From Blasia pusilla (taxonomy: Eukaryota): a stretch of DNA of 64,000 bases. A program made the position numbers and the translations under genes. Shown here in pieces: positions 32,101 to 62,100 of this stretch (its first letter is position 1; every line of letters starts with the position of its first letter). The stretch is taken from contig CM114271.1 of the NCBI GenBank assembly GCA_050084515.1, forward strand, positions 24,676,001 to 24,740,000. Reading direction: 5' to 3'. The notes beneath the pieces were generated by a model, which worked only from the letters and a program-made list of their open reading frames with translations, searched no databases and was not told where the DNA came from.

Positions 32101-34366
32101 GATCAACTGTCTCACCCATTCTGAACATCCAAGACATCACCAAAACGTTACAGATACCTTCAGAGCTAATTGCATCCTCCGAGGGTTGCGTAAATAATGT
32201 GAAAAAAACTTTCTTCTTTCTTGTATTGGACATGGCTGTTGGGAAGATAGCAGAAACAACAATCAACTTGGATGAGGATACTTGTTACAGGCTGTTGAAC
32301 ATCAGGAAAAACTAAAGCTACAAAATCCACCATGATGCACAGTTGGGTATTTCAAGGAGGCAACTACCTCTCTTTCTCAATCAATTTCAGTAATCCAGAG
32401 ACAGTCTTGTTCTCAACTTCAGGACAAGCCGAAAGGTGCTTGCGAAATAGAACCAGACCCATATCCCAGAGTGACCGAATATGTGAGGTTTGAATAACAT
32501 AAGTTCGATCTAGATACAGAGCAATACTTCGTATCATGAGCATCTGATCACAATGGTCTTGCCAGCACTTTTCAACATGCGACAAGAAAACCACAGGATC
32601 AGGACTCTGACCAACAAGGGACCGCAGCTTTGTCATGATATGAGTTTCGCATTCTTGTTGAAGCCTCCGGTACAAGTTACTTGACATCTTGTGCAGACAA
32701 AGGTCTTCAGCTGCCTGTAGGTGACCAGCACTTTCAAATATCAATATCATATAGCAGCAATGCACATCACCTCACAGTTGTAGTATCCTCACACATACCT
32801 TCAGATGACCCAATAATAAGGCATGGATTTATTTCTTTTTCTACTTGACTTCCTCTCAACTTTTACAAGCCATAAACAGACGACCTTTGGAAATTCACCT
32901 AGTTGGCAATGTCTAAAGTCCCAAACCCTTCCATCCGTGAAATATCTTCACAAGCATGGGGAAGTTATGGAATTTTATCCAAATGTCATCATTGTTTACG
33001 CTCATCCAGTGTCAAATGAAAACAGCATCCACCCAACAGCAAGCCGGTTGAATAGCCTTAAGACGTTCAGAGGCACAGGTTGGATCTGAACAAAATATAA
33101 GGATTCCGAGCACCGGGCTACACTAAGCTCTGACCAAGGTTGTAATGACACCTTGATGGCTCGACGTTCAGAGAACTCCAATTGTTGGATAAAACGTTTT
33201 ACGATTGTTTGCCTCAAACCGGAGTGAAATGAAAGATGTTCGAACAGAAAATCATATATTTCAGCACCATCTTGCAGGAATGGGAGATACTAACCCGATA
33301 AAGTTCTTCCAGGCTACAAGATACAGGCTGCTTCAAGTGAATTGCCATGACAGCCTCCTTGATCTTGGCCCAAGTTACTTCTTCGAAGTTGGTTGGTAGT
33401 TTAGGTTTATCTGCACAGTACGAACACAACCAAGAACTAAGTAACTTCTTCAATCGATCCTGTGCAACACTATTAGGTCCATTGAGTGCCAGAGGGCCAA
33501 TCATAACGCACACAAATTGCTGTCACATAAGTAGAATGCATAAACTGGTTATCTATCCGTACTGATACATAATAGGTTGGGGTTAGGGAACAGTGTAATC
33601 AAGAAGCAAACGTCCCCATCTCCGGGGTCTAGGATTTGGGCTTCAGTTTGTCCTACACTGTTCCACCTCGATCAGTTAGGTAGAACTGAGGTGCGCGAAA
33701 ACTACAACCGTAACAGACAGAAACTTCATGTATGCATAAACGATGCAATAGAGGTCTTGATTCAGCAATTTTCACATACAACAGATTCCTGAGTTTCGTT
33801 GGGATAGCTAATTGTGAGTAATTCAGAACCTCTCATAGATTTCAGTCGGAGACTCAAATTGGAAGCGCCTCTTACGCTGTAGATGGATTACATGACGTGT
33901 TACATTCAGCCTCATTCCCGTATCAGAAATTCACAAGGGGATGTTCAACCCAACAAGGTTTTGAATCGGAGTTAATGCCTGGCTTTGATAACGAAGCACG
34001 CTGAATAAGGTGAATTTTCTGCAAGGGTGAGTCACAAACCATCAGTTGATCAGAACATGTACCTTTGAAAGGTTTAATAACTAATTTTCTTGCAGGCTGA
34101 GGAGGTGTGGCCTTCTTCCTAGATAAATTGGCCGTGGTCCCGCCACCGCTAATACTCATGGCCATGGCGGGTGTGGGGGCCGAAAGACCATCCCCTTTCA
34201 GGTCTATCATCAAGAGGTCACCAGAGCTGTCTTCGTCGCCGGTTAGATGTTGTGCACCATTTTTCTCAAAGGTATCCAGGGCAGACTGAGGCTTAGGTTT
34301 CTTTGAAGCGGAAAGCATAGTCGACCCGCCAGTTCCACCACTGCTAAGTCTCTTCTTCTGAGACAT
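26156..34366 (-). CDS. CUL4: Cullin-4 (CRL4 E3 ubiquitin ligase scaffold), about 17 coding exons
   Basis: ATG at 34366 (MSQKKR). Motifs include [71 protein letters not shown] and the neddylation motif [13 protein letters not shown]. The C-terminus [24 protein letters not shown] stops at 26156-26158, and the introns are GT-AG. Confidence 0.96.
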
Positions 34367-42700: not shown

Positions 42701-45161
42701 AACCAATCCATGCAATGAGGTCTACAACTCAATCTTCTCAGATACGCAACTTTACTACGAGAATATTGGCGAGCTTTTGCTACTTTGGATTTCTTGAGAG
42801 TTGCAGTTTGTTTGTTATGATTCCTTCATGACCTTGGAGTAGACTCTTGAGTCTGTTTCTTTGCCATCAACTAAGAATGAACTTGGTATAGCTAGATAGA
42901 TAAGAGTAGGCTTATGTCGGACTCGTATAACCTATTGTTGTTATCCGAGTTGACACAAGGACCAAAGAGAATTTGGTGCAATAGAGGTCCATTGGATAGT
43001 TGGGACCGCTAGGCGCATGACACATGGTATCAGAGGTAATCCTTGGTGAGCAAGAACTTGGGGTTGTGGGAGCAACCGGACGCTTGGGGAAAACCCAAGG
43101 TAGCAGCGAGGCCCATACGCTCGGGGAGAGATGCAAGAAACACGGAGGAGATCTGAGTGTGGGGGCTTGAAGATGGCGACCAAGGGAGATGAACCACGGA
43201 AACGCGGAATGAAGTGACCCAAACCGAGAGACGAATTGATGTTGGATCGGGAGCCGGTGGAAGAGACTCCGACTCCTGAGGTGCCGAACACCATACATGA
43301 GGGTGTCCTAAACACAGACCCTACCGTGGGGGCAACGGCTCCAAACTCAAGTGAACTGGAATTCCATGTCCAAATGATGGACTATATGAAGATGATGACA
43401 AAGCGAGTGTTCCTGCAAAGCAAGCGGATTGTAGAGCTTGAGTCGGACCAAGCTTTGAGTTCTAGAAAAAAACTCTACAAGATGAACCTGCCCACGCCAT
43501 TCATTGGAGGGGGGCGAGATCGCCCCACTCCAGGTAAAAGATTTCCTTACGGAAATGGAATACTACTTTGAGGCGCAGAGGGCATCGGGGTAGGAGAAGG
43601 TGGCACTAGCGGTCACCTTACTAAATGATCATGCACTACAGTGGTGGACATCTCAACGAGAAAAACATCTAGCCGGTGGTTCACCTCTGAGCTGGGAGGA
43701 GTTCAAGATGCTCATTGGTGACCTAACCAAGCCGGAGTACAAAGAAATCCGCGATAAGATATAGCTCGTGCAACTGCGGCATACTAGGTCCCTCGACGCT
43801 TATGTGAGGGAGTTCAGCGCGAAGTTGAATTCCATTCCTAAGATAGATGAGACATCTCATATAGCAATCTTCATCGGTGGACTCAAACTGAGTGCGAAGA
43901 AGGCCTTGTATAGAATGTCGGAGTTGCCAAACACCTGCGTGGAGCTTTTGAGGATGGCGGATCGGATTGGGGATGATGAGGTCCAAACACCGGAGTCCTT
44001 TGAGACAAATTTTGTTTCCAAGATGTTGAAAAACAAAGGGGCACCCAAGAGAGTCTGGAGTGGAGTTGATCGGGACCAAGGAGATTCTCTCAACCCGGTG
44101 GCAAAGCGACAGGAATGCCATGCTAAGCTGAAGGGAGTGCAACATCAAAAGTCAGGAAATGACAAGGTGGTATGCTAAAACTATGGCAAACCAGAGCACA
44201 TGCCAAAGGGATGCTCCAAATATAAGGTTAGTAATGGGAGTATGATTGCGTTAGCTACTAAGCACTTGTGGACGGGAGGTCCAGAGACCTCCCATCAGGT
44301 CATGAAGAGGATATCCGACTTGGTGTACCTAAGATCCAAGATTGTTGATCTCAATGTGATGTTTCCCGTGAATACAGGTGCTTCACACTCCTTCCTAAGC
44401 CCTAGAATCGTGAAAGAGTTGGTTTTTTCAACCTCTAAGGCGGACTAGCCCATCCGAGTAGGCTTTGTTGGAGGCCTGTCTCATCGAACTTCTGAGTTGG
44501 TGTTGGGTTTGACGATAGGATGCGGTATTCGAGTTGAAGTAGAATTTCACAGTGTGGGAGATGGATGGCATTGATGGAGTCATCGGGAACACATTCCTAG
44601 ATGCATATGAGGTGGAACTGAGACAAAAGGCCATTGAGGTTGAGCATCTTAGTGAAAGGCAAACGATTGCAGGTGAGATTGGTTCTTGAGATGCTCATGA
44701 GAAAAAAGTTGGTGAATGCCATTACGAGGAGGAGTCAGACCGAGTTGGAGGATGGATTTCTTTGCTTAACGAGACAAGTGGAGGACATCACAAGTGAGAA
44801 GCATAGAGATTAGGATGCGACTTCGAGGGGAATCCCAAGGCTGCTACAAAGAGTAGTCAAGGAGTTTGGTGATGTCTTGACGGAGGACCTTCCGAACGAG
44901 TTGCCACCACATACAAAAATCGATCATAAGATAGAAGCCATTACCGGATCTCAATAACCTTCTGAGGCCCCATACAGATTGAATCAGGAGGAGCTTGCTG
45001 AGTTGAAAAAGCATGTAAGTGAGCTCTTAGAGAAGGGCTACATTAGAACTAGCAAGTCACCATATGGAGCGGTTGTTCTCTTTGTGAAGAAGAAGGATGG
45101 AAATATAAGACTCTTTGTGAATGAGGCGCGGTAAGAGGAGAGGAAGAGAGGAGCGAGGAGA

Positions 45162-48100
45162 TATTGAAGATTGATTTAATGTCAAACTCATGAGACACAT
45201 GAATTGCTACATTTGGTACTCACACGAAGTAGGGAAGCTTAATCTTGGTTAGTCACTTAAGCGCCATTATCTTAACTAGGGTTAGTTAATCACAGTTCGT
45301 CTAACTGGAGACTATGCTTAAGATTAGGGTTAGGGTTGCTTGTGTATACCCTCTATAATGGATAAGGGACTAACCTTCATTCATTCTCTCATTGCAAAAT
45401 TTTGTTGTCCATGGTGGTGTGCAAGTGTGAGAACCATTTGCCACCACTTATGCTTCTTTAGCAGTTTTCTACATCCTATCATAGCTCGCTTTTCTCATAG
45501 TGGGTGTAGATTTTACGTGGAGCTTTGACGATGATAAAACTTTGGAGGTGTTTTTAAGGGCTTTCCCGATTGATTTAGCCATTTGTTTCCGCATCGGTTA
45601 GATAAAATCCAAAGGTTGGTTCTAATTGTCTTGTAGAGCTCATTGAGAGCTTCCAACACATTTAAAATCTAAGCTCATGCAGTAGCAATTTCAATGTAGG
45701 AAAGTGCAATTAGTGAAGAAAAGTTCTCTACATAAATATATATAAGGTAGATAAGCATAATTACAATATTTGGAAGTTTTGCATGAAACAATTTCTCATG
45801 GATCAAGAACTATGGGAGCTTGTCACAGGTGATGAGGCCAAGACAGAAGGTCACTCAACAAACTTGAATGTTCGCGCTTGGAACAAACGCACAAGACAAG
45901 TAATCCATTACATAATAATAACTATCGATTCGCCAATAATATGTCACATTCAAGATGTTGATATTCGGAAGGAGACATGGGATGCATTAGAAAAGTTGTT
46001 CCATACATCTACAAAGGCCATAAAGCTTCAATTGAAATAGCAATTGAATGAAGTGAGGAAAGGATTGGAGAGCATCGATGATTATATTTTGAGTATCAGA
46101 TAAATTATTGATAAGTTGAATAGCATTGAAGTGACAGTAGAAGATGATGATCTGATTTTGTTTACTCTTCAAGGCCTTCCAAAGGATTACAAGTCCTTTG
46201 AGACTTCTATCTCTGTCAGAGAGAAGTATCAAACTTTTCAAGAGTTAGTCTCACTGTTAATCAGTGAAGAGTTACGTCGAGTAGGCATCAGTAGCTCGTT
46301 TAGTCTTCAAGAGAGTGTCCTATTTACATGTTATGGATCAAACAGAGGCAGGAGTTGTGGCAGAAGCTTCCGTGGTCGTGGTGGATATAAAAAATATCGA
46401 GGAAGAGGCACTCAATATAATGTCACTCAATCAACTACGAATCAGTACCAAACACAATCACAAGGTGGTGATGGTGGAAATCGTTGGGGTCGAGGTCAAC
46501 AACATAGGGTCCATGGATCTTACAATTACTGTGGGATAAAATATCATTGTGCAAAGTTTTTCTTCAAGAATAAGGAAAATATGAGAACATGAGCCTTACA
46601 TCAACAAAACTATGTGGAGCAACAACAACAACGGCACTACCAAGAACAAAAACATTCACAAACTGAGCATATCTTGGTCATGACTCATCATATGGGAGCA
46701 ATGGTCAAGAAAGATTCGACACCAGATACATTGACTCTAGTGCATCAAATCACATCACCTCATAAGCTAAATGGTTCAATAGTTTGGAGCCGGTGAAAGA
46801 TCCTGCAATTGTGTTGATAAGAGATGACATTGAGCATCATATCACGCATATCGATAAAGTTCCAGTAGCATCAGATGGTCTTTGTGGTCTTGGAATTATT
46901 CTCTATCTTCCTACCATTGCAAGAAACTTGATCTCTACATGATAGATAGTATAGCAAGGTTATCAAGTGAAGTTTAACACAAATGGTTGTTTCATTAAAA
47001 CAATGGATGATCAGACTACGATAGCCAAAGGAACTAGATCTGGAAGAATGTTCAATTTAGATATTTCTATGCCAGACATTCAAACAGCAATGTATGGTCA
47101 AAGAAGCCAACAAGTCACATATTTAAATATGTGGCATAAGAGAATGGAAGATATGAATCTTTAAAGATTACAAAGTCCTTCATCATCTAATCTAGTAATA
47201 GGACTTCCTAAATAAGCAAGTCCTGCTACGTTAGAGGTATGTCCTCCTTGCCAATTTGGAAAATAAACTAGATTTCCATTTCCAAAACAAAGTAGAAGAG
47301 CATTCAAAATATTGGAGTTGATTCACATTAATGTGTGGACAACATCACAACATAGCCTTAATGGTTGCCAATACTTCATTTCATTTATTGATGACTTATC
47401 TAGATATATATGTGTATACTTTATGAAAGCCAAGTTAGAAGTATTCTCAATATTTCAAACATTAAGAGTTCTAGTAGAGAAGCAGACTATAGAGAATATA
47501 TTATGAAATTGTGTTCAGATGGAGGAGGAGAGTATCTTGCAATAGAGTTTGATGATTACTTACATCATAATGACATCCAATGTCGAGTACTTGCCGTTAC
47601 ACTCCACAACAAAATGGAGTGGCTGAGAGAAAGAATCGGCATATTGTTGAGACAGCACGAGCTATGGTGAATGAGAACATACCTAAGGTGTATTGGGTTG
47701 AGGCTATAGTGTGTGCAGTCTTCTTGATCAACCAAACTCCAACAAAAAAATTCATGATAAGACTCCATTCTAAGTTCTTCACATGAAGTAAACGTGGTTT
47801 TTCTTTCATGAAAGTATTTGGTTGTAATTGTTTTGCTCATGTTCCTTCTGAAAGATGTAAAAAATTAGACCCCAAAATTTGAAAGATGAATATTCATCGG
47901 CTACGCTGATGGAACTAAGGGGTATAAGTGCTATATTCCATCATCTAGGAAGCTTATTATTAATCGCGATGTTGTCTTTGATGAGCTAAAGTCATGGTAT
48001 GATACATTTGAGCCTATTCCACCTCTAAACTCGTATGTTTTTTTTTTTTTTGGGGGGGAGATGACTGTAAACCAATTGACAATGCCTTCAAATTCCCCAA

Positions 48101-50139
48101 GTACAAGTGTAGGATTAGGAGAGGTCATAGATTCGTCAGTTAAATCTGTAAGTCCACGGAGGAGAAGAGTACATATTCAATCTGTTGACTCTAGTCAGAG
48201 CTCAAGTCAGGTGTTAGAGGTATCTACCTCTGAACAAAAACTTCGTAGATCAAGTAGAGTCACATATCATGTTCAGAGATTCATATATATATATATATGA
48301 AGGTTTTCTTACGATACATCATGCATATATGATGACTACCCTTCAAGACCATAAGCCGAGTTATTTTAAAGAAGCTGCAAGTAAAGTCGAATGGATTGAA
48401 GCTATGAAGGAAGAGCTTGCTGCATTAAAACATCAACACAATTGGGAGTTTACAAAGTCAAGCGCAATCAAGATGGTATAGTTAATAGATATAAAGCGGG
48501 ATTGGTGGCTAAGGGCTATGCACAAAAATATGGCATTGACTATGGGGAAACTTTTAGCCTTATTGCAAAGATGGCGACTACAATAAAAGTGGTTGCAGTT
48601 GTAGTAAGTAAGAAATGGAGATTACATCACATAGACGTCAAGAATTCTTTCTTGAACGCAGATCTATATGAGGAGGCATATATGACTCAACCACCTAGAT
48701 ATGAGCATCCCAAGTTTTCATTTCGCGTACGTATGTAGGTTGAAGAAAGCTCTATACAAGCTCAGACAAGCTCTTAGAGCCTTAGTATGGCAAGATTACA
48801 TTTATCGTACAAGAGTTGGGTTTTAGGGTATGTGATTATGACTCCTCGTTATATGTCTTGAGAGGACAAGATCATAAGATTATCATTGTGCTGTATGTTG
48901 ATGACCTCTTGATTACTGGGAGTACTAAGGATATGGTACAACAAGTCAAGCTAAAATTATAGGCAAAATTTTATATGAAAGACTTGGGAGAACTCAAATA
49001 CTTCTTTGGTGTTGAGTTTATCAAGGTTGGAGAGACCATGTGGTTACTACAACGATAATATGCTCTTCATATGCTTTCAAAATATGATATGACGGCTTGT
49101 AAGCCAATCTCTACACGGTTGGACCAGAGTGTGAAGCTAAGAGTGGATGAAGGAGAGTTGCTTGCACATTCTAATATGTATAGACGCATGGTTGAAAGTT
49201 TGATCTATCTAACTATAACACGGCCAGATTTGAGCTATGCAGTTGGCCTAGTTAGCCAATTAATGCAAGCACCTCGAAAACCTCATATTGATGCTTTAAG
49301 GAGGATTATGCGATATGTGAAATTATTTATTCAATTCGAGCTTCAATTTGAACCTTCTCCGAGTTAACAATTACATGGATTCACATATGCTGATTGGGCA
49401 TGAAGCGTGTCTGATCGACACTCCACATCTGCTTATTCACTTACTCTGGGAAGCGCCGTTATAAGTTGGGCTTCAAAGAAGCAACCTACAGTGGCTTATT
49501 CTCAACAAAGGCTGAATACACAAGAGCAATCAATGGAGCATGTGAGACGGTGTGGCTTCATCAATTCCTTGTTGAGATTTGTGGTAGTAAATTAGGACCT
49601 ATATGTAGACAATATTAATAACATCAAACTTGCTAATAATCCAGTGTTGAGGTGCACTATCATTTTATCAGAGAGAAAGTGCTTGCAAGAGAAATTGATC
49701 TTGTGTATAAAGGTACAGATCAGCAAATTTCTTACATCTTTAGAAAGGCATTGTCTAGAGATAAGTTTGAGATGTTTAGAAACGATTGCGGCTTGTTAGA
49801 GATATCGATATGAGCTTGAGGGGGAGTATTGAAGATTGAGTTACAGTCAAACTCATGAGACACATGAACTCCTACATTTGGTATTCATACGAAGTAGCGA
49901 AGCTTAATATCGGTTAGTGAGTTAAGCGCGATTATCTTAACTATGATTAGTTAATCATAGTTAATCTAACTAGAGACTATGGTTAAGATTAGGGTTAGGG
50001 TTGCTTGTACATACCCTATATAATGGAGAAGGGGACTAGCCTCTACTCATTCTCTCGTTGCAAAATTTTGGTCTCCATGGTGGTGTGTGAATGTGAGAGC
50101 CGTTTTCCACCAGTTATGCTTCTTTAGCATTTTTCTACA
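45162..50139 (+). mobile_element. Full-length degenerate Ty1/Copia retrotransposon
   Basis: LTRs at 45162-45473 and 49827-50139 (TA...CA), degenerate PBS TCCTATCATAGC, PPT GAGGGGGAG and TSD GGAGA/AGAGA. Order is gag, then integrase (DGGGEY, TPQQNGVAERKNR), then RT (LVAKGYAQ, LYVDD), then RNase H. Confidence 0.93.
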
Positions 50140-50530
50140 AGAGAGAGGAGAGAGGAAACTACCTTCATCCCAAAGAGATACATTTGGTTGAAGAGAGCTT
50201 CATGTGGTTTGAAGAGAGTTTCCGTTGGGTTGAAGAGAGGAAGTTTTTTTGGGGAATATTTTTGCAATTTTGTTCTCTATGCTTAGTCACTCCCACAGAT
50301 TGGCTTGTTCTCTTCCATATTCTGGCAACTCGTCGGAATCCGACGGGTTGCAACTTGCACAAACTAAAAAAAAACTGAAAAATTCATTGGAATCACTAAT
50401 GTGGAACAAATCACTTTTTCCATACAAGGTATGAAAAACACTCATCATTTATCCATAGCTGATAAGGGTACAAGCTCATAGTGAACATTTTGGCACTTCA
50501 GGGTACAATCAAAGACCTCATTCTGCATCC

Positions 50531-51900
50531 TCAAAGTGGTTTGTTTAAAATACTTCGCACTTCTTTGAGAAACAAAATTGGTTGGTGGATTCCTACGCCT
50601 ACCTCCGACTCTCTTAAACAACAAGCAACACATAGTAAATGTGCTTACAAGGGAAATACCTTTTCCCACTTGTCTCTCTTTGGACAAAGTCATCACAAGA
50701 ACATGTGGGGAAAGTAACAGATATGTACCACATACATCCCTATCACACTTGAATTCAAAGTGTTGTTCCTGATCCAATACATCCTTCCTATTCCATTGCT
50801 ACTATGAATGTCTTTTGTGGCGATAATTTTCATGTTTGCATCCCGAGCTTATGCGATTCGCTGTGCTCTCTCCATTGTTCGCCTACACATTCTATTTCTA
50901 TTCACCCCATTTATAGGCTCGAACAGAAATAATGGATTGAGATCATCCACCTTCTCAACATACATGTTGATATCAATCCTGGGTTAAATTCAGAATACAA
51001 AGGTCTCTGTAATGTGAATATGCTCCAAAACTCCGTCCATCTATGAGTTTGAAAATCAAGACTTATAAGATTTTCCACTTTGTCAGGGGTGGAATTGGTT
51101 CCTGCAGCAATGGGCCAAATCATGGGAATATTCCCTAGAGCTCCAATGGTAGTCGGATAAGACTTTCGAAGAGTGCATGATTCATTTGGGCATAAGATGT
51201 ACTTCAATTGATCCTCGGTTCTCGTAAAATGATTAAAGGTTTCCAGCCCCCATAAGCCTAGCAGTGGTTGTCTTATTCTTACATAGTTCTTATTCAGGAA
51301 AGTGCCACATGCTCTCCTAATGCCACCGATCCTGCCTTGCAAGTAGGTATACCTCGAGGGTTGCTTCGAGAAATATGCCACCGCTTGAGGTTGCAATCAA
51401 CCTCAACGATCAGACTCTTAAGTGGGAAGTTCCAGCAAAAGAGGGATTTTCAAATAAAACATTCATTGATTTTGCAGAAGGTACTTCAACTCAAATTGGG
51501 GAGCAGTCCTGTGTCTTTGAATACATGAGCGGGATTATTTCATCATCCAAATCAATCACTGGATTCTTTCCTCGATGCACACGGTTGACTTTCCTGAAGT
51601 CAAATTACTTATCAGGTCTCCAACAGTCTCGTTCAGACTTCTTTACTACCATCTCTATGGGACATTTCGAAACACGCCCACGAATGTCCTTACCAATGTA
51701 AACGTCTTTCTAAAGAGGAGTTTGAGCTACGCACCAATTGAAAGCTTCCACATACAATTTCTCATCCCCAGATCTAACAGCGGCTCTAACATAGAGCTCG
51801 TAAATTGAAGGGTCCTTTCCCTTGGTTACGCCTTTTGTGAGGAAGATGTGGAAGCCTGCAGATTATAGCATTGCTCTTGCCTAGTCTTGTTGGCATGCCT
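50531..51900 (-). pseudogene. SWIM zinc-finger protein pseudogene (MEKK1/ZSWIM2-like SWIM)
   Basis: Frameshift-joined translation QRIA.AR...YVVHICYFPTCSCDDFVQ...PCKHIYYVL...IHQPIL.LKEVRSIL gives CxC...CxH at about 50620-50740. The 5' boundary is approximate. Confidence 0.72.
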
Positions 51901-52058
51901 CAACATATATATTTTTTGACATGTTTATGATGACCTAAAGGAGGAATGAACACTCTCGACTCCGCTTATGTTGGGGCATAGGGCATTTTTGTGAATGTTA
52001 AGTCCCTCCACGGGAAAACTTATCAATTGATGGAGGGAACGCCTAAGTGTTGAATGAT

Positions 52059-53017
52059 TGCAACCCGTCACAATCTGACGGGTTGTGAGAAGCATTGAGA
52101 TGAAAACAACCAACCCGTCGATTGAACCATCGCCGACTGAGTGGACTAGCCAGAAAGGAATATTCGGAAATCATGATTAATGACTAGTGGGAAAGGATTT
52201 GCCGGGCTTCCTTCAACCTATGGGAGCCTGACGGTTTGGAAGGTAGACTCATGGGGGACTCCAACCCGTTGGAGTCCGATAGGTTGGAAACCCTAATGAA
52301 GCATGTCGACCGATAAAACGCACTTCGACGAGTTCAATTGAGTTTGGGTGGGACGATCCGACCCATCCGATTCCATCCTATCATACTCCATGGGAAAGAT
52401 CTACTAGAGGTCCTTCAACCCCTCAAAGTCTGACGGATTGCAAAATGAACAAACTCAAAATGGCGGTCCCTCCCTGGTCCTAGCCCGCGATAACCCATCA
52501 CACTCCCACGGCTTGTACCAGTTAGGCAGCTTGGATTTCGTGCAACTCGTCGGAGTCCGATGGTTGCACAAATCAGTTTGAATGGTCCCCGTGCATCCCG
52601 TCGGACTCCGATGGGATGCACGGGACCTAGGCTGGATGGACCCCATGCACCCCGTCATGGTCCAAAGGGTCACAGGAACCAAGCAGGATCAATGGTCCCC
52701 GTGCAACCTGTCAGACTTCAATGGGTTGCATAGGACCTAGGTTGGATGGACCCCACGCAACCCGAAGTGGTCCGACGGGTTGCAAGAACAGGGCACGATC
52801 AATGGTCCCGTGCAACCCATGGGAGTTCGAAGGGTTGCACGTGACCTAGGCTGGATGGACCCCGAGCAACCCGTCGCCCGTCGGGGTCCAAAGGGGTGCA
52901 AGAATTGGGCAGGATGGACCCCGTGCAACCCGTTGGAGTATAATGGGTTGTAGGTAGAATCCTGGGCATATCTCCCATGCATTGGAGTTGCAACCCATCG
53001 CGCTCCAACAGGCTGCA
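52059..53017. repeat. Palindrome array 1 (~15 copies), between the divergent genes
   Basis: Consensus TGCAACCCGTCGGAnTCCGACGGGTTGCA, for example at 52541, 52592, 52702, 52756, 52811 and 52924. The core has a ~55-bp period with two alternating spacer types. Confidence 0.92.
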
Positions 53018-54588
53018 GGTAGCTCACGCGGAACATGCACCGTAATGGTCCACCATTGTACAACCGGTCCCCTGTCGTACACCAACGGTCCGCCGTCGCA
53101 CCAACGGTCGAGTCCAACGGCTCCGGAAGTACATAAGGACCAGTTTCGAGGCTTCTCACTTTTCTATTCTACAATTTTCCGCGTTGTTTTAAACTCCCGT
53201 GTTAATACAACTACCAAAACTTGCTTTCTATTTACTCGAACATTTTGACGGTTGGTGGTGACGGTTTGAATTGAAGCGATTCTTTTCAGAGTTAATGAAG
53301 ATTTAGGTAAGAACCCCTCGTGAAGCATTTGATTGTTGGCTTATTTTAGGATGACTCGAAAAGATTCCCAAGCCAGCAAGGTCGTGAGCTTCTTTCCCAA
53401 GCCCGACAGAACTCCGTCTTTTGGTACGCGACGCACGGCCGCAAATGTTTGGCGAGAGGAAATCGAGGAGCGCGAGCGAGAAACCGAGATGAGGAAGCAG
53501 GAAATGTTGGAGAAACTAGCTTTGGAGAAGGTCGCAAAGCAAGCGGAGAAGAGAGAAGTGAAATTGCTTGCGGATGCGGAGAAGGCCGAGAAGAAATGCA
53601 TGGAGGCGGAGATCAAGCAGAATAAGAGCTAGGACGCCGGCTTCCCGAAAGCCAAAATTGCAAAAGCCAGGAAGGAAAGGGCATTGGTTGTAGAAGAAGA
53701 ACATGCCCAACAACCCACCGAGAGTGTGGGAATGGAGGATGTCTCATCCATGAGGTCGAGTGGTCCAATGCACGAGACCAATACCAAGGAGCTTCTAGAG
53801 ATCAACAAGGAAGCTGTTAGAACCCCGAGTGTCAAGATAATGGAGATCTCGTAAGGAGAAGGAGGAGAGTCTTCTACATCTCAAAACCATGTTGAAGAAT
53901 TCGTCCTCTTTGCAATTGAAGAGTTTCCAGTAGACTTGCCGGATGAGGCTCCATAGGAGCTCGTTGGACTTGACACTGACCCACTTTTCGAGCGGGTAAG
54001 AATTATTCAATAGTTCTCTCTACACTGCATTACTTCCAGTTGTTCTGAAAATTGGAATTGACAGTGGTAACATTCGCGGAGGTGTTGAAGCAGGAGATAC
54101 TGGTGGATGGCCGGAATGTCCCGAGGATTCTTCTCTACCAACTCTAAACGATGGAATACATTTGACAAATCCAATCGGAGAAAGACATTGACAAGTTGAA
54201 GCAGTCATTGACAACAACGTCATACGTTGACTTCCCACCTTTCTATCTCCGACCGTAGGTTGAGCATGGAACCCAAGCTTTGGTTATGGAGGAAGAATTG
54301 GAGAGTCTAGATGCTTTTTGGAGGTTGAGGGACGTTGAGTTCCGCAAGGCAGTAGCAACTCAATACAAGTGGATGCAAAACTTGTACTTCTTCATCTAGG
54401 ATGACAACCACCAATTCATGGCACGGTCGTAGTTTGCAGCAGAGCGACCAAACTCCCTTGAGGCTCACTTTTGCGTGAGGGCGGTGGTCCTCCATCTCGA
54501 CTCAAATCATATGGCTAAGGTGGAGATGGCTATGCTCTCCATGAACACGTAAGCATCCTCAACAAATTTCCCCAAATAAGAAGCGGTT

Positions 54589-55397
54589 TCAAGCCGTCAG
54601 ACTTCGACAGGTTGGTTCTTAGTAGTAATCATTAACGATAGCAGCCACCCGTCAGAAGGCGACTGGTTGCGATAGGAACAACTTGCTCCCGTATTTGCAA
54701 ATCGTCAGACTCTGACGGATTTATTTTGGCTCTCTATTGAGTTTCCTGGAAACCCGTCGGAGTCCGACGGGTTGCACAATCTCGAGTGTAGCCATCCAAG
54801 TAGGATAGGCCATATAACCCATCAGACTCCGACGGGTTGCATGATCTTTATGGAATGAGTCTTGGTTGGGGTGGATGTGCAACCTTTCAGTCTCCGACGG
54901 GTTGCAAAGGCATGCAAAGCCAGACCATTCAAACCATGGCCTTTCTTACGGCACATGCAACATGTTGGAGTCCGACGGGTTGCAAACCACTCACAACAGG
55001 GCCTTTCTTACCGCATATGCAACCCGTCGTACTCCCACGGGCTGTAGGGCCAATCAAACTCGGCTCTCGAAACTACAGTTCGTGCAATCCGTCGAACCCC
55101 AACAGGTTGGAAGAGGAGGGACCTCTTGCAACCCATCGGACTCTATCGAAGTGCAAGAGAAAAAACTTGCCTTAGAATCCTCAACCACATGTAAATATAA
55201 TACCCGGTGTGGGTGGCTTTGCAACCCCTCGGTTTTTGACAGATTGAATTTTTGAATTTAGGGGCCTGGAGGTGCAACCCATTGGAGTCCAACAGGTTGC
55301 TACCCAACCTAGATTAACGCGGATGCAACCCGTCGGTTTCCGACCGATTGCACCGAGGAAGCTTTTGGAGCAACTGTCAAACTTCGACGGGTTGCAA
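54589..55397. repeat. Palindrome array 2 (~14 copies), in an intron of the methyltransferase gene
   Basis: Same consensus, for example at 54750, 54878, 54956, 55273 and 55324; spacers are variable. Confidence 0.92.
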
Positions 55398-57310
55398 ACA
55401 AGTGCCATTTTGTTCGTCTACTTCCAATCCCTCAGAAACCGACAATTTTATTGTTGTAAGTGTTCTTACTTCTCATTGATGTTTCCAACATCCTGTCGGA
55501 AGGGAATGTTACCCATCATTGGATCGAGGAATGCAACCAAGTGAGGAAGGTTCTTACAACGTACCCGTCGTAATACAAAGGATTCCTTGGAGAGGATTTG
55601 GTGGATGAGATGGTCGCAAAAGGAGCACAAATTAAAAAAATACTTGGGCCAACACATTCATTTCCCAAGATGCATTTGTTACGATTCTCTGTTGGCCAAA
55701 AATACAACCGGCAAAAAGAAGCGCGACACTCGAGTTGGAGCAGAGAGGGAATGTTTTGGATTCTTAGAGAGCGAAGTTCATTAAGGCTGTTGTGTCGGCG
55801 GCGATCATCTACCTCAAGGTTGAGGACGGTGATGCATCGGTTTATCGCCATCCTCAACCCCGAGCTCGGACGTGACTTTTACAAAGAGTTGAAGGCCATA
55901 ATCAAGCGACAACAAAGGAGGGACAAGGATCCTCGTGGACGGATTGTAGAGAACGTGTCATTGGATAGAGCTCACTTGTTCGCCCTCTCAAGGATTTCGG
56001 AATTTAGGCAGATCCAATTGATGAAGATCAGTCTAGTGGGAACAGAGGCATAGAACAAATCGGCACACCATCCCCCTGGGGTGTCGGACCTAGTCATTTC
56101 CCAGTGGCTACGAGAATGGTCCTTCTGGAATGCCTTGCGCTTACAAGGAAAGTCGATGATTGAGTGCCTTCAAGGCGACATGCAGAGAATTCAGCCTATT
56201 TCAGAGGAGACTAGCCTCGATTCGGCGGAGGAGTACAAATTGTGGTTGAATCACATCCGGGATAAGCCGGCAAAGAACCCCAAGTTCAAGACGATGTTCA
56301 AGAGCGATATTTTGCCGGAGGGAGATCTCGATGAGGAGATTGGCGACCCAAAGAAACGAGACTTTGAAAAAAAGAAGAAGGAGCTTCAAGATCAAGCCGC
56401 CGATTCATCCCGCCAACGAGCTGCACAGAGGATGGTGATCAAATTTTTGCCCTCCTGTGTGAACGTAGGAAGATGGAGGAAGTTCCCGGCGGCGCTCAAG
56501 CTATGGGCAAATACTCCGCATGGTGAAGGATTCTTCATGTACCACGTGGAGATGGCACTCGACATGAGCCCTTGGGAAGTGCTGATCAAACTGTCCAATC
56601 TGCTTGGACTTCAACGATCATCGAGGACGGCAACGGGAGGCCCCGAAAATGAATCTTATGGATTGCGACGTCACGGAGACCCCAACAAGCAGGCACCCCA
56701 CTCGCGAGAAGAAAAAGAGGGAGATAACGGGTTCCTCCAAGGGGGGGGGGAACAAGAATGTAGTCTAAACTCCCTCATTTTTGGGGAAGCACAGGGATGG
56801 AGCATCGAAAATTACTATCGCTACTGGAAGAACTAGAGAAGTTCTCCACATAGGAGTCCACGATGGCTTGGAGAAGCTGACACTCTTGGGATGAAAGCTT
56901 TTGCAAAACGGCCATGCCTCATGGACCGTCAATGGGGTACCTGAGGAGGTTGCACTTGACCTCCTCATTGTAGATCTACCGTCGGGGCTTAGATTGTGGG
57001 CAGAGAACCCATGCGACACAGCCCCAGATTGGAACATTCCCTTCACATATGACCAAATCGAGTTGATGTCCTCCTTTGCCAATGCGTATCAAAGTGACAC
57101 GTGATGTTTCCTTGTTCTCACCCGTGGTAGTGAGGATGAGCTCTTAAACTTGCAATGCGCGAAGCGATCATTGAAGTGGCAAACAGTGCAGTCTTGGGAA
57201 GTGAAGAACAACTACCGCTAAGGTCGACTACAAACCAAGTCTTGGTAAGTTCGAAAAAATTATGCAACTTTTTTCTTTTTTTTTCTCGCATCCTGGTTTT
57301 CATTTTTTCT

Positions 57311-57648
57311 TGCAACCCATCGAACGAGTTACACATTGATCCTAACAAGCCTTGTGCAACCTGTCGGAGTCCGACGGGTTGCAGACGGACTATGCGCACA
57401 ACCCGTTGGACTTTGGTGGATTGCAGCACCCACTTGTCGGGTTCTTGGGTGTGTCTAGCAATCCGTCGGATTTTGACGGGTTGCTGATAGGCCCTGTGAC
57501 TGCCTGTGCAACCCGTTGGAACCCAACGGGTTGCATATCCACAATTGGTGAGTAACCCGTCTGAGTCCTACAGTTCGGATCCCCCACTAAACGCAAATTG
57601 CCTCGGTGACATCTGACATTTGCAACCCGTCGGATTCCGTCAGGTTGC
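57311..57648. repeat. Palindrome array 3 (~7 copies), in the intron splitting the methyltransferase domain
   Basis: Same consensus, for example at 57355, 57507 and 57621, between the donor at 57245 and the acceptor near 57709. Confidence 0.9.
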
Positions 57649-58952
57649 TCCTAGAAGACTTCTTCCTCCCATTGATTCTTAGCTGATTTGTACGGTTCTA
57701 TTCTTTGCAGATCGAATACTATTACGTCTATTTTTTGTCAAACCAGAGCACGGTTTCGAGGTTTTTGAGGTACAGGATCCTGTTGATCCAGGTTCAGATG
57801 GATTCACTCTTACCAACCTCTTTAATTCATCCCCATAAATCGTCGTTGAGGAAGGAATGATTAGAGGGAGAGGAAAATCACCCGCACTCATGCATACCCT
57901 CATGGAGCTCTGTTCGAGGCCAGGTGATTTGGTGCTCGATTTGGTGGGTTTTTCTCGGGCAACTGTTAGAGTTGCTTGGCAGAGTGGCCAAAATATTCTC
58001 TGCCTTGAGTCTCGAAACACCTTGTTTGCACTTTTATCGGAGGCAAAGTCTGACTACGAGAGGGATATGGGCGTTTACAAGTCGCCTGCACGGATCAATG
58101 AACCTGCACTGGAGCCAGTGGTTGTGACGCCATCCTCACTACCAGTGATCCTAAAAATCGGAAGGGCAAGGCCACCGGTGATTCTAGAGGAGTTGTCAGA
58201 TGATGATGAGTGAGTGCATGTGCCTTGGATTTGAAGCGTTTTGGAGTTGACATGTGTTGGTTCTTGGGAAGTAGGAAATATTGATATCAATGGGTTTCCA
58301 TTTGCAGAAGCTTCAAAATCAGTTGTCGAAGTAGGCGTTGGGACTCTTCTTGTGTCACATGGGACCGATACGGGGTACCTAGGGGGACAAGGGTCTCGGA
58401 TCCTCCTTCCTTCTCTGTTCCAATCAACAATCACGTAGAAGAGCCTCTGACTAGTCTGAGAAGTCTCTTGTCGAGGAACCGGCAAGAGTTAGGAACATTT
58501 GTTAAGATGACGAGGCTGAAGAGATCATGGAATATATTTTATTGTTAAGGAAATCAAATGTAAATGACCGATTTGCAAATGGTTTTAAATAAAGTGGTTT
58601 TTTTAACGCAACCAATTCTCTTCATGCTTATGGTCTGATATTATTTTTTATCACATTTCAAAATTGAGGTGAGGCTTTTGTGCTTTTGTAATGTGTCGAA
58701 AATCGACGGGTTGCCTGCTGTCTTTTCACATTTACATTTTTCCTGGAAAATATCTTTTCCCATTTATAGTTTTCATGATGTTCTTTCTCTGTACCGAGAC
58801 CAATTTATTCTCTTCGTTTCTTTTGGTCTTGTATACGTGCTTTCTTGGACTCCTATCTTTGGTTTGAGGCGTTGGTAACTCATCTTATTCCAAAAGGTTG
58901 AAAACCACTCCAACCGAAGAGTAGAATCAATTTTTGCAGAATATCCAGTCTT

Positions 58953-59115
58953 ACAACCCGTCGGAGTCCAATGAGTTGCAAGATAATCAAAATGAGAGAC
59001 AATACAATCTTGCAACCCGTCGGATTTTGACGTGTTGCAAGAGGTGCAACCTGTCGGCTTCCGACAGGTTGCAAGGGATGCAACCTAAACCTGATGCAAC
59101 CTGTTGCAGGTTGCA
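58953..59115. repeat. Palindrome array 4 (~4 copies), downstream of the methyltransferase gene
   Basis: Same consensus at about 58953, 59011, 59045 and 59095. A lone copy also lies at 50325-50352 near the other end of the element. Confidence 0.85.
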
Positions 59116-62100
59116 ATAAGTTGTGGAGAATCCCATCTGATGGAATAGTATTGATCAGATGGGATATTTCATGCTTTTTTACATGAAGAGACCTCCTACC
59201 CAACATGGTGAGGATGGGAGTCCTACATTAACAGTCCATAATTTCAACCATATCTTTTGAGAAGTTAAAACGTAAAGGGCACATGAGTCTATTGACACCA
59301 TAGACAGAGTCTTTATTAGAACCTTTCATTGAGATCATTTTTTTTGTACTCATCAAATTATCTACCGATGGTCCTCCAACAACAATATCCCTCAATCGGC
59401 CTTACTATAGAGCTGGCTTAGACAAGCAATGTGAAGAAAATTAGGCTCACATGGAGAGTGTTGGAAGGATGTTTGCAGTGGTTCTTCTGATGTCATCTTG
59501 TTTTTCCAAGCCTGGAAGAAGAAGGTTAGTTTAGGCCCGAATGTGGTCTACTTGCTACTCTTCTCTAAAGATTTTTGAATTTGAAACCATCTTTTTTTTT
59601 CAAAAATGTCAAAAAGTTTTAAAGAAAGGAGGCGGATTCAACCTCTTTTTTTTTAATAGAAGAGAGACTCCCCTCTCTTCCTCTCCTCTCTTACTCTCTC
59701 CTGCTATAATACTAGCCCCCTCTTTGGAATATTGTGAGCTGAATAAGGTAACGGTGAGAAATAGTTACCCTTTTCCAAGGATTGATGACCTCTTCGATAG
59801 ACTATCAGGGGAAAACTACTTCGATAAAATTCTTTTAAAATCAAAATATTACCATATTCGGATTGCCGAAGTGGATGTGGAAAAGACTACGTGTAGAACG
59901 AGATATGGCTTGTTCAAGTTTGTGGTGATGCCCTTCGGTCTATGTAATGCGCCTCTAGCATTCACCACATTGATGGACTCCATTTTCCACGAGGAGACAC
60001 ATGAGTATGTGATCATCTACATAGATAATATACTCATCTATTCGAAGTCACTAGAGGAGCACACTCGACACTTGAGAGCGATGTTGTTGAAACTAAGGGC
60101 GAACAAGTTGTACGTGAAGATGGAAAAGAGTGAGTTCGGGTTGGGCAAGATCAAGTTCTTGGGTCATGTGGTTAGCAAAGATGGAGTTAGTCCAAATATG
60201 GACAAGGTGAAAGCCATCGTCGAGTGGAAACCGCCTTCCACAGTGAAGGGAATGAGGAGATTTATCAGCGCGGTGCCGTTCTACAGAACCTACGAAAGGA
60301 ATTTTTCGGGGTTTGTGAGATCTCTCACATCTTGGATTGCAAAGTATGCTAACACAACCTGGATCCAAGAAGTGAATGACGCGTTCAATCGAGTCAAGGA
60401 GATCCTATTGCAGGAGGTAGTGTTGAAGCTGTTGGAGTTCGACAAGCCGTTCAAGGTGCATACTGATGCTAGTGATTTTGCAATTGCAAGAATGTTGGTA
60501 TAGAAACGAAGACTTGTAGCGTACCAGAGTAAGAAGCTCAATAACACTAAGAGGAGATGGCCCACTCATGAGAAAGAGTTTTTCTTGTGGTCCATTGGTT
60601 GAGGAAGTGGCGTCACTATTTGGGACTTCACAGGATTTGAGTGTTCATCTAAAACGTATCACTCAAGTATTTTGAGACCGAGGATCGAGTGACACCGAAA
60701 CAACTGCGATGGCATGATACCTTGGCGTTGATGAATGTGGAACTGATCCACAAGCAAGGGAAGGATGATGTCATTCGAGATGTATTGAGTTGCAGGGATG
60801 AAGACATGCCATCGACAACACAGGTCTTGAGAGCAATGTTCCCTAAGGAAACAGATCTGGAAAGAAGGATTCGTGAGGGATACATGAAAGACATCCAGAC
60901 GAGTGAGTACCTAAGGAAGTTGAAGCAGGGTGAGAAGGTGGCCAACATAAATTTGAGGCAAGGTTTGCTAAGGTTCAAGCAGAGCAGGATCTATGTGGGC
61001 AAATGCAGATTGCGAACCAAGGTGTTAGTGGAATGTCATGACGGACCCTTGTCAGGACATAAAGGGGAAAAATTGACGTTGGCTGTTTTGGCTAAGAGGT
61101 TCTTCTTGCCCAACATGAGAGAGGATGTTGCTTAATATGTGAAGACCTGTGTGACCTGTCAGGCGAGCAGATTTTCTTATGGGAAGAAACAAGGCTTGCT
61201 ACAGCCTTTGCCAATTCTGGATGGACCCTTGTAGAGTGTGAGTATGGACTTCATAAAAATTATTCCAGAGTGTGAGGGATAAAACGCCATACTTATGATA
61301 GTTGATTGGTTTGGTAAGTTTGGGAGATTCGTGCCGATGGTGGATTAAGCGACGAGCTTACGACTTCTCGACTCTTCCTGGATAGTTGGTGGTGTGCGCA
61401 TGGGTTGCCTAGTTGCATTGTTTCAGATCAGGATCCAAACTTTACATGTGCCTTTTGGTAGCATTTGTTCAAGAGGTTCAAGACCAATCTGAGTTTTAGC
61501 ACGGCCTTCCATCTGTAGACAGATGGGCAGACGGAAAAGCTAAACTCCCTCGTGAAGCAGTTCTTAAGGAATTACACACAAGCAAGATTAAGCGAAGTGG
61601 CTGAGTATGTCCAAGTTCTCCTAGACCTCAACCAAGCATTCTGCAATTGGAGAATCTCAATTTCTCTTGGCTTATGGACGTGAGCTAGAAGAGCCCCTTG
61701 ACCTAGCCCTTTGAAGGGCACTACATCAGCACAGACTCGACAAGCGACGACAGAAGTTTTGTTAGCGGAGATGCGAGAATGGGAGGAGCGAGCAAGGAGA
61801 AACCTTTCAAAGTCTCAACCAAGGTCTGTGGAGCATGCTAACAAGAGCAAGCGCCAAGTGAGATTCCGAGCTAGGGAACAAGTGTGGTTCACTGTGAAGA
61901 ATCTCACTCTTCCGAAGGAGTTACCTCCGAAGCTATCTGCCAAGTATGCTCGATCCTATGTGATTAAGCAAACCCATTTGAGGACATGTATACCTTGGAG
62001 CTACCATAAGAGTTTAGGATACATCCCACTTTCCATCTGTCATTGTTGAAGAAGTATCTTCAAGATAATGAGCGTCTGAGCGCAAACAGACGTTGAGACC

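Follow-up and report, generated by a model that had tools for sequence, protein, structure and literature searches.

We analysed a 64-kb window from Blasia pusilla (64,000 nucleotides of contig CM114271.1, positions 24,676,001 to 24,740,000; coordinates below count from the first letter of this stretch), in which a DNA element carries a decayed ParB-methylase-like gene and arrays of a CpG-rich palindrome. The window is repeat-rich plant DNA. A 14.6-kb insertion at 45123-59719 interrupted the frame of a Ty3/Gypsy reverse transcriptase (RT), which was readable to 45122 and picked up again from 59726; the right Gypsy flank contained RVT_1 (Pfam, expectation value (E) 5e-23), followed by RNase H and an integrase zinc-binding domain. 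Direct-repeat comparison of the flanks detected CTCTTTGTGAAT at 45111-45122, within the Gypsy RT, and CTCTTTGGAAT at 59720-59730, directly at the break in the RT. This repeat resembles a target-site duplication, with 12 nt on one side, 11 nt on the other and one indel; about 9-11 nt is expected for Mutator and Mutator-like elements (MULEs). We take the insertion to be a transposon on the evidence of the split RT, of the duplication and of the related contigs described below. An earlier note, made from the letters of this DNA alone, had placed an insertion with these limits in a split Gypsy RT and had reported the flanking direct repeat, and both observations were borne out.

The left terminus of the insertion (45123-45161) was AG-rich and separated from the remainder by a nested Copia element, and the right arm and terminus (59101-59719) had a CT-rich end. 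The inverted ends of the earlier note were recovered in part: an AG-rich core of ~22 nt and a GGTTGAA motif were seen in inverted orientation, whereas the inversion was weak and of low complexity, and therefore modest evidence. A related contig of sequencing run X2, 84% alike over 59426-59721, diverged into other sequence at its loose end at 59721; its different flank past this position argues for a genuine terminus at 59719-59721. Three subterminal 21-nt direct repeats (TTGGTTGAAGAGAG core) were present at 50174-50239, a short way in from the left end, and a single inverted GGTTGAA was found near the right end at 59634-59640; these are possible transposase-binding sites. A BLASTN search with the element gave no hit in the window outside the element itself, and the Gypsy flanks likewise had no second copy within the window.

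The nested Copia long terminal repeat (LTR) retrotransposon occupied 45162-50144 on the + strand, as the earlier note had proposed. Its LTRs, at 45162-45473 and 49827-50139, were 86-88% alike (repeat families D7 and D12), and Retrotran_gag_2, RVT_2 and SH3_retrovirus were detected between them (Pfam). Contigs of run X1, a low-coverage DNA run evidently of the same species as the window (680 pieces, at least 99% identity), joined 45152 straight to 50141, indicating that copies of the element without the Copia exist. One X1 contig linked Copia position 46649 to 59720 on opposite strands; that is, a related Copia may occupy the same or a nearby Gypsy RT position elsewhere in the genome.

The + strand of the element carried a decayed pseudogene collinear with a family of ~1,100-1,240-aa proteins of the liverwort Riccia sorocarpa. 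The longest frame of the gene, P0001, was a 420-aa read-through at 55574-56833 with one stop read as X. Using tblastn with family proteins, we obtained four collinear blocks on the + strand: 54073-54564 (P0018 residues 136-306, E 6e-8), 55487-56578 (P0018 residues 300-528 and P0002 residues 32-260, the latter with E 5e-13), 56910-57212 (P0018 residues 931-1026 and P0002 residues 372-473) and 57866-58117 (P0023 residues 1107-1184, E 1e-5). The window gene retained all 12 of the 12 invariant columns of the family alignment A4.

These blocks were assigned to exons as follows. A possible first exon at 53351-53950 (+), Lys/Glu-rich and with a Met start, is predicted from its frame and did not align to relatives. 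The block at 54073-54564 corresponds to a ParB-like N-domain, in which the family F..WDGNHR was decayed to FFI*DDNHQ. It was followed by an intron-like homology gap at 54549-55486, filled by a palindrome array. The block at 55487-56833 holds a conserved helical middle region resembling the ParB helix-turn-helix (HTH), with the motifs NP.LG..F, D/ER..F, HHP, WL.EWSFW and RAAQRMV.KF. The block at 56910-57212 (DLLIVDLPSGLRLW...PDWN), in a frame different from that of the preceding block, corresponds to the methylase motif IV region. After a second intron-like gap (57245-57865), which also holds an array, the last block at 57866-58210 (PGDLVLDLVGFSRATVRVAWQSGQNILCLE), recognised by Pfam, PHROG and tblastn, corresponds to the methylase motif I region and ends at a stop codon. 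Canonical GTAAG donors were found at both homology breaks (GTAAGC at 54549 and GTAAGT at 57245). A retroposed or LINE-mediated (long interspersed nuclear element) origin is ruled out by the introns and by the lack of an A-tail. The first three blocks contained six, two (to 56578) and one in-frame stops, that is, at least nine in total, and the frame shifted several times between blocks. This copy is dead and without function; the earlier note had also called it dead. Run X2, possibly of RNA, placed almost no sequence on the gene.

In the window itself, the methylase signal was weak. The N6_N4_Mtase domain (PF01555) was matched below threshold at 57839-58210 (E 0.001; 19.5 bits, where 26.7 are required), and the motif I exon matched phrog_3008 with E 5.8e-4. 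The methylase reading of the window was confirmed through its relatives.

A 29-nt CpG-rich palindrome with the consensus TGCAACCCGTCGGAnTCCGACGGGTTGCA was present in 39 copies, all within 50324-59073. At a tolerance of at most 9 mismatches in 28 positions, the rest of the 64-kb window and 20 shuffled controls each gave no copy; at 3 mismatches or fewer there were 11 matches against 0.00 expected. The claim of about 40 palindromes found only in the insertion thus held. One isolated copy with 2 mismatches lay in the left arm (50324-50352), and the other 38 were within 52059-59073. They formed array 1 (52059-53017; 14 copies, partly as a 110-nt tandem unit) upstream of the ParB-methylase gene, array 2 (54588-55396; 14 copies) in the first intron-like gap, array 3 (57355-57649; 6 copies) in the second, and array 4 (58687-59073; 4 copies, partly as a 34-nt tandem unit) downstream of the gene. 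That is, the palindromes occupied the non-coding DNA of the gene upstream, in two introns and downstream, and none of the 39 overlapped an exon homology block. Their spacing was mostly 42-93 nt, and the arrays were in part plain tandem repeats (units of 110, 62 and 34 nt). Each palindrome unit has four CpGs, and 68 of the 209 mismatches to the consensus were C>T or G>A changes at these eight positions, a decay that would be expected of cytosine-methylated, silenced DNA. The dyad centre was GAnTC in 14 of the 39 palindromes, compared with a chance expectation of 1/16 for odd-centred palindromes; GANTC is the site of the beta-class enzymes CcrM and HinfI, and we treat this as a lead only.

The left arm (50145-51950), which holds the 21-nt repeats and the isolated palindrome, also carried a SWIM zinc-finger pseudo-ORF (open reading frame) on the - strand at 50560-51396, with 10 in-frame stops between 51396 and 50560. 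The SWIM domain itself (PF04434; 50620-50718, - strand; CSCDDFVQRETSGKRYFPCKH; CSCDDF...CKH) was detected by Pfam with E 6.7e-4 and a score of 19.6 bits, which is the cut-off value itself. The 161-aa open frame preceding SWIM gave no recognisable family, reaching at most 0.78 to unnamed clusters in the ESM Atlas. On the strength of its 11-12-nt duplication and SWIM finger, Mutator-like is the best guess for the superfamily of the element; the SWIM score lies exactly at the cut-off, no transposase core precedes it, and SWIM also occurs in Zisupton/KDZ transposases and host proteins.

We then compared the pseudogene with its relatives. HMMER search of P0001 against 1.84 billion proteins returned 19 matches (E 2e-7 to 1e-3), 15 of them R. 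sorocarpa hypothetical proteins and the other four ENA, Logan or JGI records. All 24 matches obtained with P0018 were from R. sorocarpa; they were 34-88% identical, many were truncated, and they lay on eight differently sized contigs. The R. sorocarpa matches indicate a family of many diverged copies, the pattern to be expected of genes carried by transposons. Among its members, P0023 (R1sor_027256), P0040 (R1sor_024992), P0026 (R1sor_007218) and P0018 (R1sor_008990) look intact. Word-index protein searches gave no match for P0001 among 2,670 candidates and none for the motif I exon against longer proteins among 473. Sequence searches of the PDB with P0001, the family profile A1 and P0048 yielded nothing at a meaningful E-value. 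Scans of metagenome contigs with A4 and P0025 gave 130 and 31 pattern matches, respectively, none of which was confirmed by tblastn, and viral contigs scanned with P0023 and with the palindrome pattern gave no match. Against phages, tblastn of P0023 returned 15 weak matches (E 0.03-1), all on motif I. In the ESM Atlas, the nearest neighbours of P0040 were two Streptophyta clusters (0.93 and 0.92), followed by phage ParB_N + N6_N4_Mtase clusters (0.84), the closest that bear a name; we take this proximity as a lead only. UniRef labels some family members (P0021, P0023, P0024 and P0026) 'Trimethylguanosine synthase'. This name was unsupported by Pfam, PHROG and hhalign, which indicate a beta-class DNA methylase homologue.

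The N-terminal half was assessed through the predicted fold of P0003. The AlphaFold model had a mean pLDDT (predicted local distance difference test) of 62, with values of 81-93 over most of the helical part, and Noc, sulfiredoxin and ParB headed its Foldseek list. We re-aligned the 372 best Foldseek chains, and the top 12 were all ParB, Noc or sulfiredoxin, with Z-scores of 4.4-7.4. Noc (7ol9_B) showed Z 7.4 over 203 of 203 residues, Myxococcus xanthus ParB (7bnr_B) Z 6.5 over 185 of 196, Bacillus subtilis ParB (6sdk_B) Z 6.2, and Arabidopsis sulfiredoxin Z 5.0 over 89 of 89. The ParB and Noc alignments covered residues 167-540 of the model, which comprise the N-domain and the following helical DNA-binding region. 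An independent all-against-all structure search returned the same families with Z-scores of 4.2-5.0 (sulfiredoxin 5.0 over 89 of 89 residues, PadC 4.8, KorB 4.7). These fold matches suggest that the N-terminal half of the family probably consists of a ParB/sulfiredoxin-fold N-domain and a ParB-type helical DNA-binding region. The motif W[DE]GN[HQ][RQ], mostly WDGNHR, was present in 22 of 48 stored proteins and was decayed to *DDNHQ in the window. The conserved Gly-x-x-Arg nucleotide-binding motif of ParB is GERR, and we infer that WDGNHR of the family corresponds to this motif, ParB box II.

The C-terminal domain was examined by profile comparison. In hhalign, the family alignment A3 matched A5, an alignment of three phage adenine methylases (L001:943-1707, L002:940-1686 and L003:931-1686), with a probability of 95.5% and E 1.4e-8 over 187 columns, covering template positions 25-237 of 255. 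ParB_N (PF02195) was matched in none of the three phage records. PF01555 was matched at E of 0.1 or less in 9 of 23 family members (best 9.4e-6), P0038 bears a precomputed PF01555 label, and PHROG DNA-methyltransferase families matched the protein family with E down to 8.7e-7. The order of motif IV before motif I and the homology over nearly the whole domain indicate a beta-class methylase homologue. On these sequence comparisons, the C-terminal domain of the family is classed as a beta-class (N6/N4) DNA methylase homologue. Of the ParB-methyltransferase gene proposed in the earlier note, the methylase homology was upheld through the relatives and the ParB part was supported by their probable fold, whereas Pfam detected no ParB domain.

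Taken together, we consider it fairly likely that the insertion is a decayed cut-and-paste-type element with a ParB-methylase-like pseudogene as cargo, whose palindromes are the predicted cis sites of its own ParB-like protein. A DNA element would have inserted into the Gypsy RT and would later have been hit by the Copia. Its cargo would be an intron-bearing pseudogene encoding a ParB/sulfiredoxin-fold N-domain, a ParB-type helical DNA-binding region and a beta-class methylase-like domain. We observed the insertion, the gene family with its domain homologies, and where the arrays lie; from these we infer that the protein would bind the palindromes and act there. ParB binds palindromic parS as a dimer through its HTH domain (PMC12704722; bioRxiv 10.1101/2025.02.11.637652). 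By analogy, the palindrome is most likely the predicted binding site of the ParB-like protein, dimers of which would use it as a cis or loading site. Every non-coding part of a ParB-like gene is filled with one palindrome, and the simplest reading is therefore that the palindromes would be the loading sites of the protein itself. Binding would bring the methylase-like domain onto the DNA of the element, marking it or shielding it from host silencing, and sites in introns would stay inside the transcription unit without disturbing the protein. The methylase-like domain might act by adenine methylation, for which GAnTC is suggestive, by cytosine methylation at CpG, or in a non-catalytic role.

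Several results weigh against this explanation. ParB_N (PF02195) gave no Pfam match in the ORFs of the window, in six read-through frames or in the 25 family proteins scanned. Foldseek with the P0003 model returned no match at E of 0.001 or less, the best being 0.098. Every fold Z-score was below 8, the comfort line of the structure tool, which itself calls lower Z-scores common; therefore, the ParB fold assignment is probable but not proven. Single-sequence PF01555 scores were all under the gathering cut-off (best listed 23.7 against 26.7 bits), and for the methylase half (P0015) AlphaFold gave a poor model, with pLDDT below 50 over residues 255-487 and 539-599. Methyl transfer to DNA is doubtful because the aromatic residue of motif IV is missing throughout. 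No transposase core, including the MULE DDE domain PF10551, was detected by Pfam in 122 ORFs, six read-through frames or three frames of 50449-52102, in agreement with the earlier note, which had seen no transposase; the window copy is decayed and may be non-autonomous. The weakly inverted, low-complexity termini are modest evidence for the ends, and the apparent link between the palindrome and the gene family comes from this one locus. Finally, breaks in depth and in CpG content near 51950 and 59100 suggest a composite.

The strongest alternative is such a composite, to which we give a substantial chance, though one short of even. In that case, an abundant non-autonomous outer repeat (45123-45161 with 50145 to ~51950, including SWIM, and ~59100-59719) would own the termini and the duplication, and the rarer ParB-methylase and palindrome unit (~51950 to ~59100) would be a separate element or cargo, for which the SWIM gene would not be a partner. 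Summed word depth of X1 contigs was very high over the left arm (931-2,565 over 50237-51937) and high over the right (705 over 59309-59875) but low over the interior (10-141 over 51938-59308), and an X1 loose end was found at 51954. The ratio of observed to expected CpG was 0.68-0.91 in the interior but 0.48 and 0.22 in the left and right arms, and GC was 0.41-0.53, 0.41 and 0.39 in the same order. However, the summed depth is uneven and cannot be read as a copy number (10.7 at 50894 against 2,211 at 50571), and abundant deletion derivatives retaining the ends only would look alike. The well-kept palindrome at 50324 also lies in the left arm, and neither inner inverted repeats nor duplications were found near the breaks (51880-52070 and 59075-59420). 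Separately, the segment 50571-50709, approximately the SWIM-coding piece, was covered by a few X1 contigs, whose word depth was 1,600-2,200; loose ends lay at 50616 and 50709, and a short segment here seems to be shared with a very abundant repeat. A self-contained module with two divergent genes, as envisaged in the earlier note, is thus unsupported, as the SWIM arm differs in depth and CpG ratio and may be another repeat.

The decayed element with ParB-methylase-like cargo also has to be separated from the claim that its protein is an active N6-adenine or N4-cytosine methyltransferase, writing N6-methyladenine (6mA) or N4-methylcytosine (4mC) on the element. We regard this activity, proposed in the earlier note, as unlikely. 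The homology to phage adenine methylases spans the whole domain, and motif I (FxGxG), which binds S-adenosylmethionine (AdoMet), is retained as a DIVIDFAGGWGAT-type motif in intact relatives (11 of 48 stored proteins), with decay to DLVLDLVGFSRAT in the window. However, the catalytic motif IV of the form (D/N/S)-P-P-(Y/F/W) is replaced by D-[LIM]-P-[ST]-G throughout the family; it reads LD[LMI]P[ST]G in relatives, including intact liverwort copies, and VDLPSG in the window. In hhalign, this motif aligned to D-I-P-Y of the phage enzymes. The three comparator phage adenine methylases themselves have D-I-P-Y in place of D-P-P-Y, and a non-proline second position thus occurs in annotated phage enzymes and appears to be tolerated. 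The fourth residue, on the other hand, was Ser or Thr in every member showing the motif and in the window, and the aromatic residue at this position stacks on the flipped target base in these enzymes. The HPTQKP stretch of the phage enzymes was also not retained (hhalign). The GAnTC centre of the palindromes would suit an adenine methylase, and the 1/16 chance expectation tempers it as a lead. Marking of DNA with 6mA or 4mC is therefore doubtful, and, judged from the sequences, the methylase-like domain may serve as a binding or regulatory module.

It is less probable still that the palindromes are unrelated to the ParB-like protein. They would then either be bound by a transposase that escaped detection, in the manner of CACTA or hAT subterminal repeats, or be a self-propagating foldback or satellite sequence that expanded in non-coding DNA. 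The arrays are indeed partly plain tandem repeats, and one copy lies ~220 nt from the left end, with others 650-770 nt from the right end. However, with the Copia removed, 34 of the 39 are more than 2.5 kb from either end and wrap one gene, including two of its introns; palindromic sites suit a dimeric ParB-type HTH binder, and the same layout is reported beside PAG3 in red-algal transposons (bioRxiv 10.1101/2025.02.11.637652). Finally, it is highly improbable that the gene is a host fragment captured by a Pack-MULE-like transposon, or a piece of an integrated virus, in place of dedicated cargo: the closest named look-alikes are phage proteins and no transposase adjoins it, but one liverwort genome has over 35 diverged paralogues, many of them truncated, which is the pattern of a repeat family; the gene has introns, and the viral contigs scanned gave no match.

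Elsewhere in the window, a 172-aa open frame at 31769-32284 (- strand) matched the Cullin family (PF00888, E 6.4e-14), indicating a host gene or gene fragment among the repeats.

The earlier note had presented the element as a candidate new plant mobile system. This was not borne out, as ParB-like and methylase accessory genes have been published for algal transposons. The available text on the 21.5-kb Ectocarpus transposon Sola1-1_Ec32 describes an accessory gene for a 1,104-aa protein with ParB-like and DNA methyltransferase parts (PMC12477816). As far as that text goes, the likeness extends to one long protein with a ParB-like part and an N4C/N6A-type methylase (1,104 against ~1,100-1,240 aa), to its position as cargo of a DNA transposon, with the other gene on the opposite strand, and to the proposal that the accessory protein binds and modifies its own transposon. 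The available text does not mention palindrome arrays, and we compared the two by description only. The Ectocarpus element is a brown-algal Sola1, whereas the present one is from a land plant, has an 11-12-nt duplication and shows no transposase; the duplication of Sola1 is 4 nt.

In red algae, transposons of the Plavaka, Mutator and Zisupton groups bear two accessory genes, one for PF01555+SET and one, flanked by tandem inverted-repeat arrays, for ParB-like+2OG-oxygenase (2-oxoglutarate), and the same self-binding hypothesis has been put forward for PAG3 (bioRxiv 10.1101/2025.02.11.637652). As there, a ParB-like gene lies beside inverted-repeat arrays and a PF01555 N6-adenine methylase is borne by the element, and the best structural match quoted for PAG3, 7BNR_B, was the second-best match in our analysis. 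Unlike PAG2 and PAG3, in which ParB+2OG oxygenase and methylase+SET are divided between two genes, ParB and methylase form one protein here, and two of the arrays are intronic; this comparison was also made by description only. The architecture of a ParB-like protein and a PF01555-type methylase in a DNA transposon with adjoining inverted-repeat arrays is matched at the present locus.

Phage fusions of ParB_N and N6_N4_Mtase likewise have a ParB fold followed by a beta-class methylase, according to the available parts of PMC12704722 and PMC4738411. They differ in being ~400-490 aa long, in lacking the long helical and disordered middle and in having genes without introns; motif IV reads D-I-P-Y in all three phage methylases used for comparison. 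To our knowledge, no cis palindrome arrays are known for phage ParB-methylase proteins. ParB-linked methylases in chlorophytes, chytrids and haptophytes, and ParB-terminase loci, are reported in the accessible part of PMC4738411.

Two plant systems were also considered. VANDAL elements of the Mutator superfamily encode the accessory protein VANC, which, in the sources as available, is proposed to bind short motifs repeated in the non-coding DNA of its own element and to alter the methylation state of that element. VANC is not known to have a ParB or methylase domain and is likened here by description only; VANDAL motifs are short and not palindromic. The second system, Marchantia MpDN4MT1a/b, comprises sperm-expressed host N4-cytosine methyltransferases with TSPPY, as given in the available text of bioRxiv 10.1101/2021.02.12.428880. 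These are likewise prokaryote-type N4/N6 DNA methylases in a liverwort, but the available text mentions no ParB part, and the present family differs in having D-[LIM]-P-[ST]-G in place of the canonical TSPPY and in its repeat-family behaviour. We rejected a link to Marchantia DN4MT1 on account of the differing motif and the host-gene status. A further preprint describes retrotransposon-borne methylases, and its available text does not mention ParB (10.64898/2026.05.21.726589). Our full-text literature searches gave no report of a ParB-methylase gene in land-plant transposons; algal supplements might hold more.

The locus is therefore a dead land-plant representative of a class of transposon accessory systems that had been described before. 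It extends to embryophytes a ParB-methylase cargo previously known from transposons of brown, red and green algae, and it is distinctive in its intronic palindrome arrays and its non-canonical catalytic motif. Tentatively, and with less than an even chance in our estimate, we suggest a land-plant transposon lineage, present at least in liverworts and in the plant of this window, in which a protein of ParB-CTPase fold would load on parS-like arrays in the promoter, introns and 3' flank of its own gene. Its re-tooled D-x-P-S/T-G methylase would either place an unusual mark at GAnTC-centred, CpG-rich sites or provide an AdoMet-dependent shield against 5-methylcytosine placed by the host, together forming a self-recognition and anti-silencing device of bacterial or phage derivation in embryophyte chromatin. 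If intact relatives work as proposed, a land-plant transposon system would recognise its own DNA through a bacterial partition-type protein and alter its epigenetic state. This would be a second route, besides that of VANDAL and VANC, by which plant transposons escape silencing, and it would provide a possible genuine source of marks other than 5-methylcytosine in bryophytes, a group in which claims of 6mA and 4mC are disputed. The liverwort proteins, together with a palindrome like the present one, provide a concrete, testable pair of protein and site.

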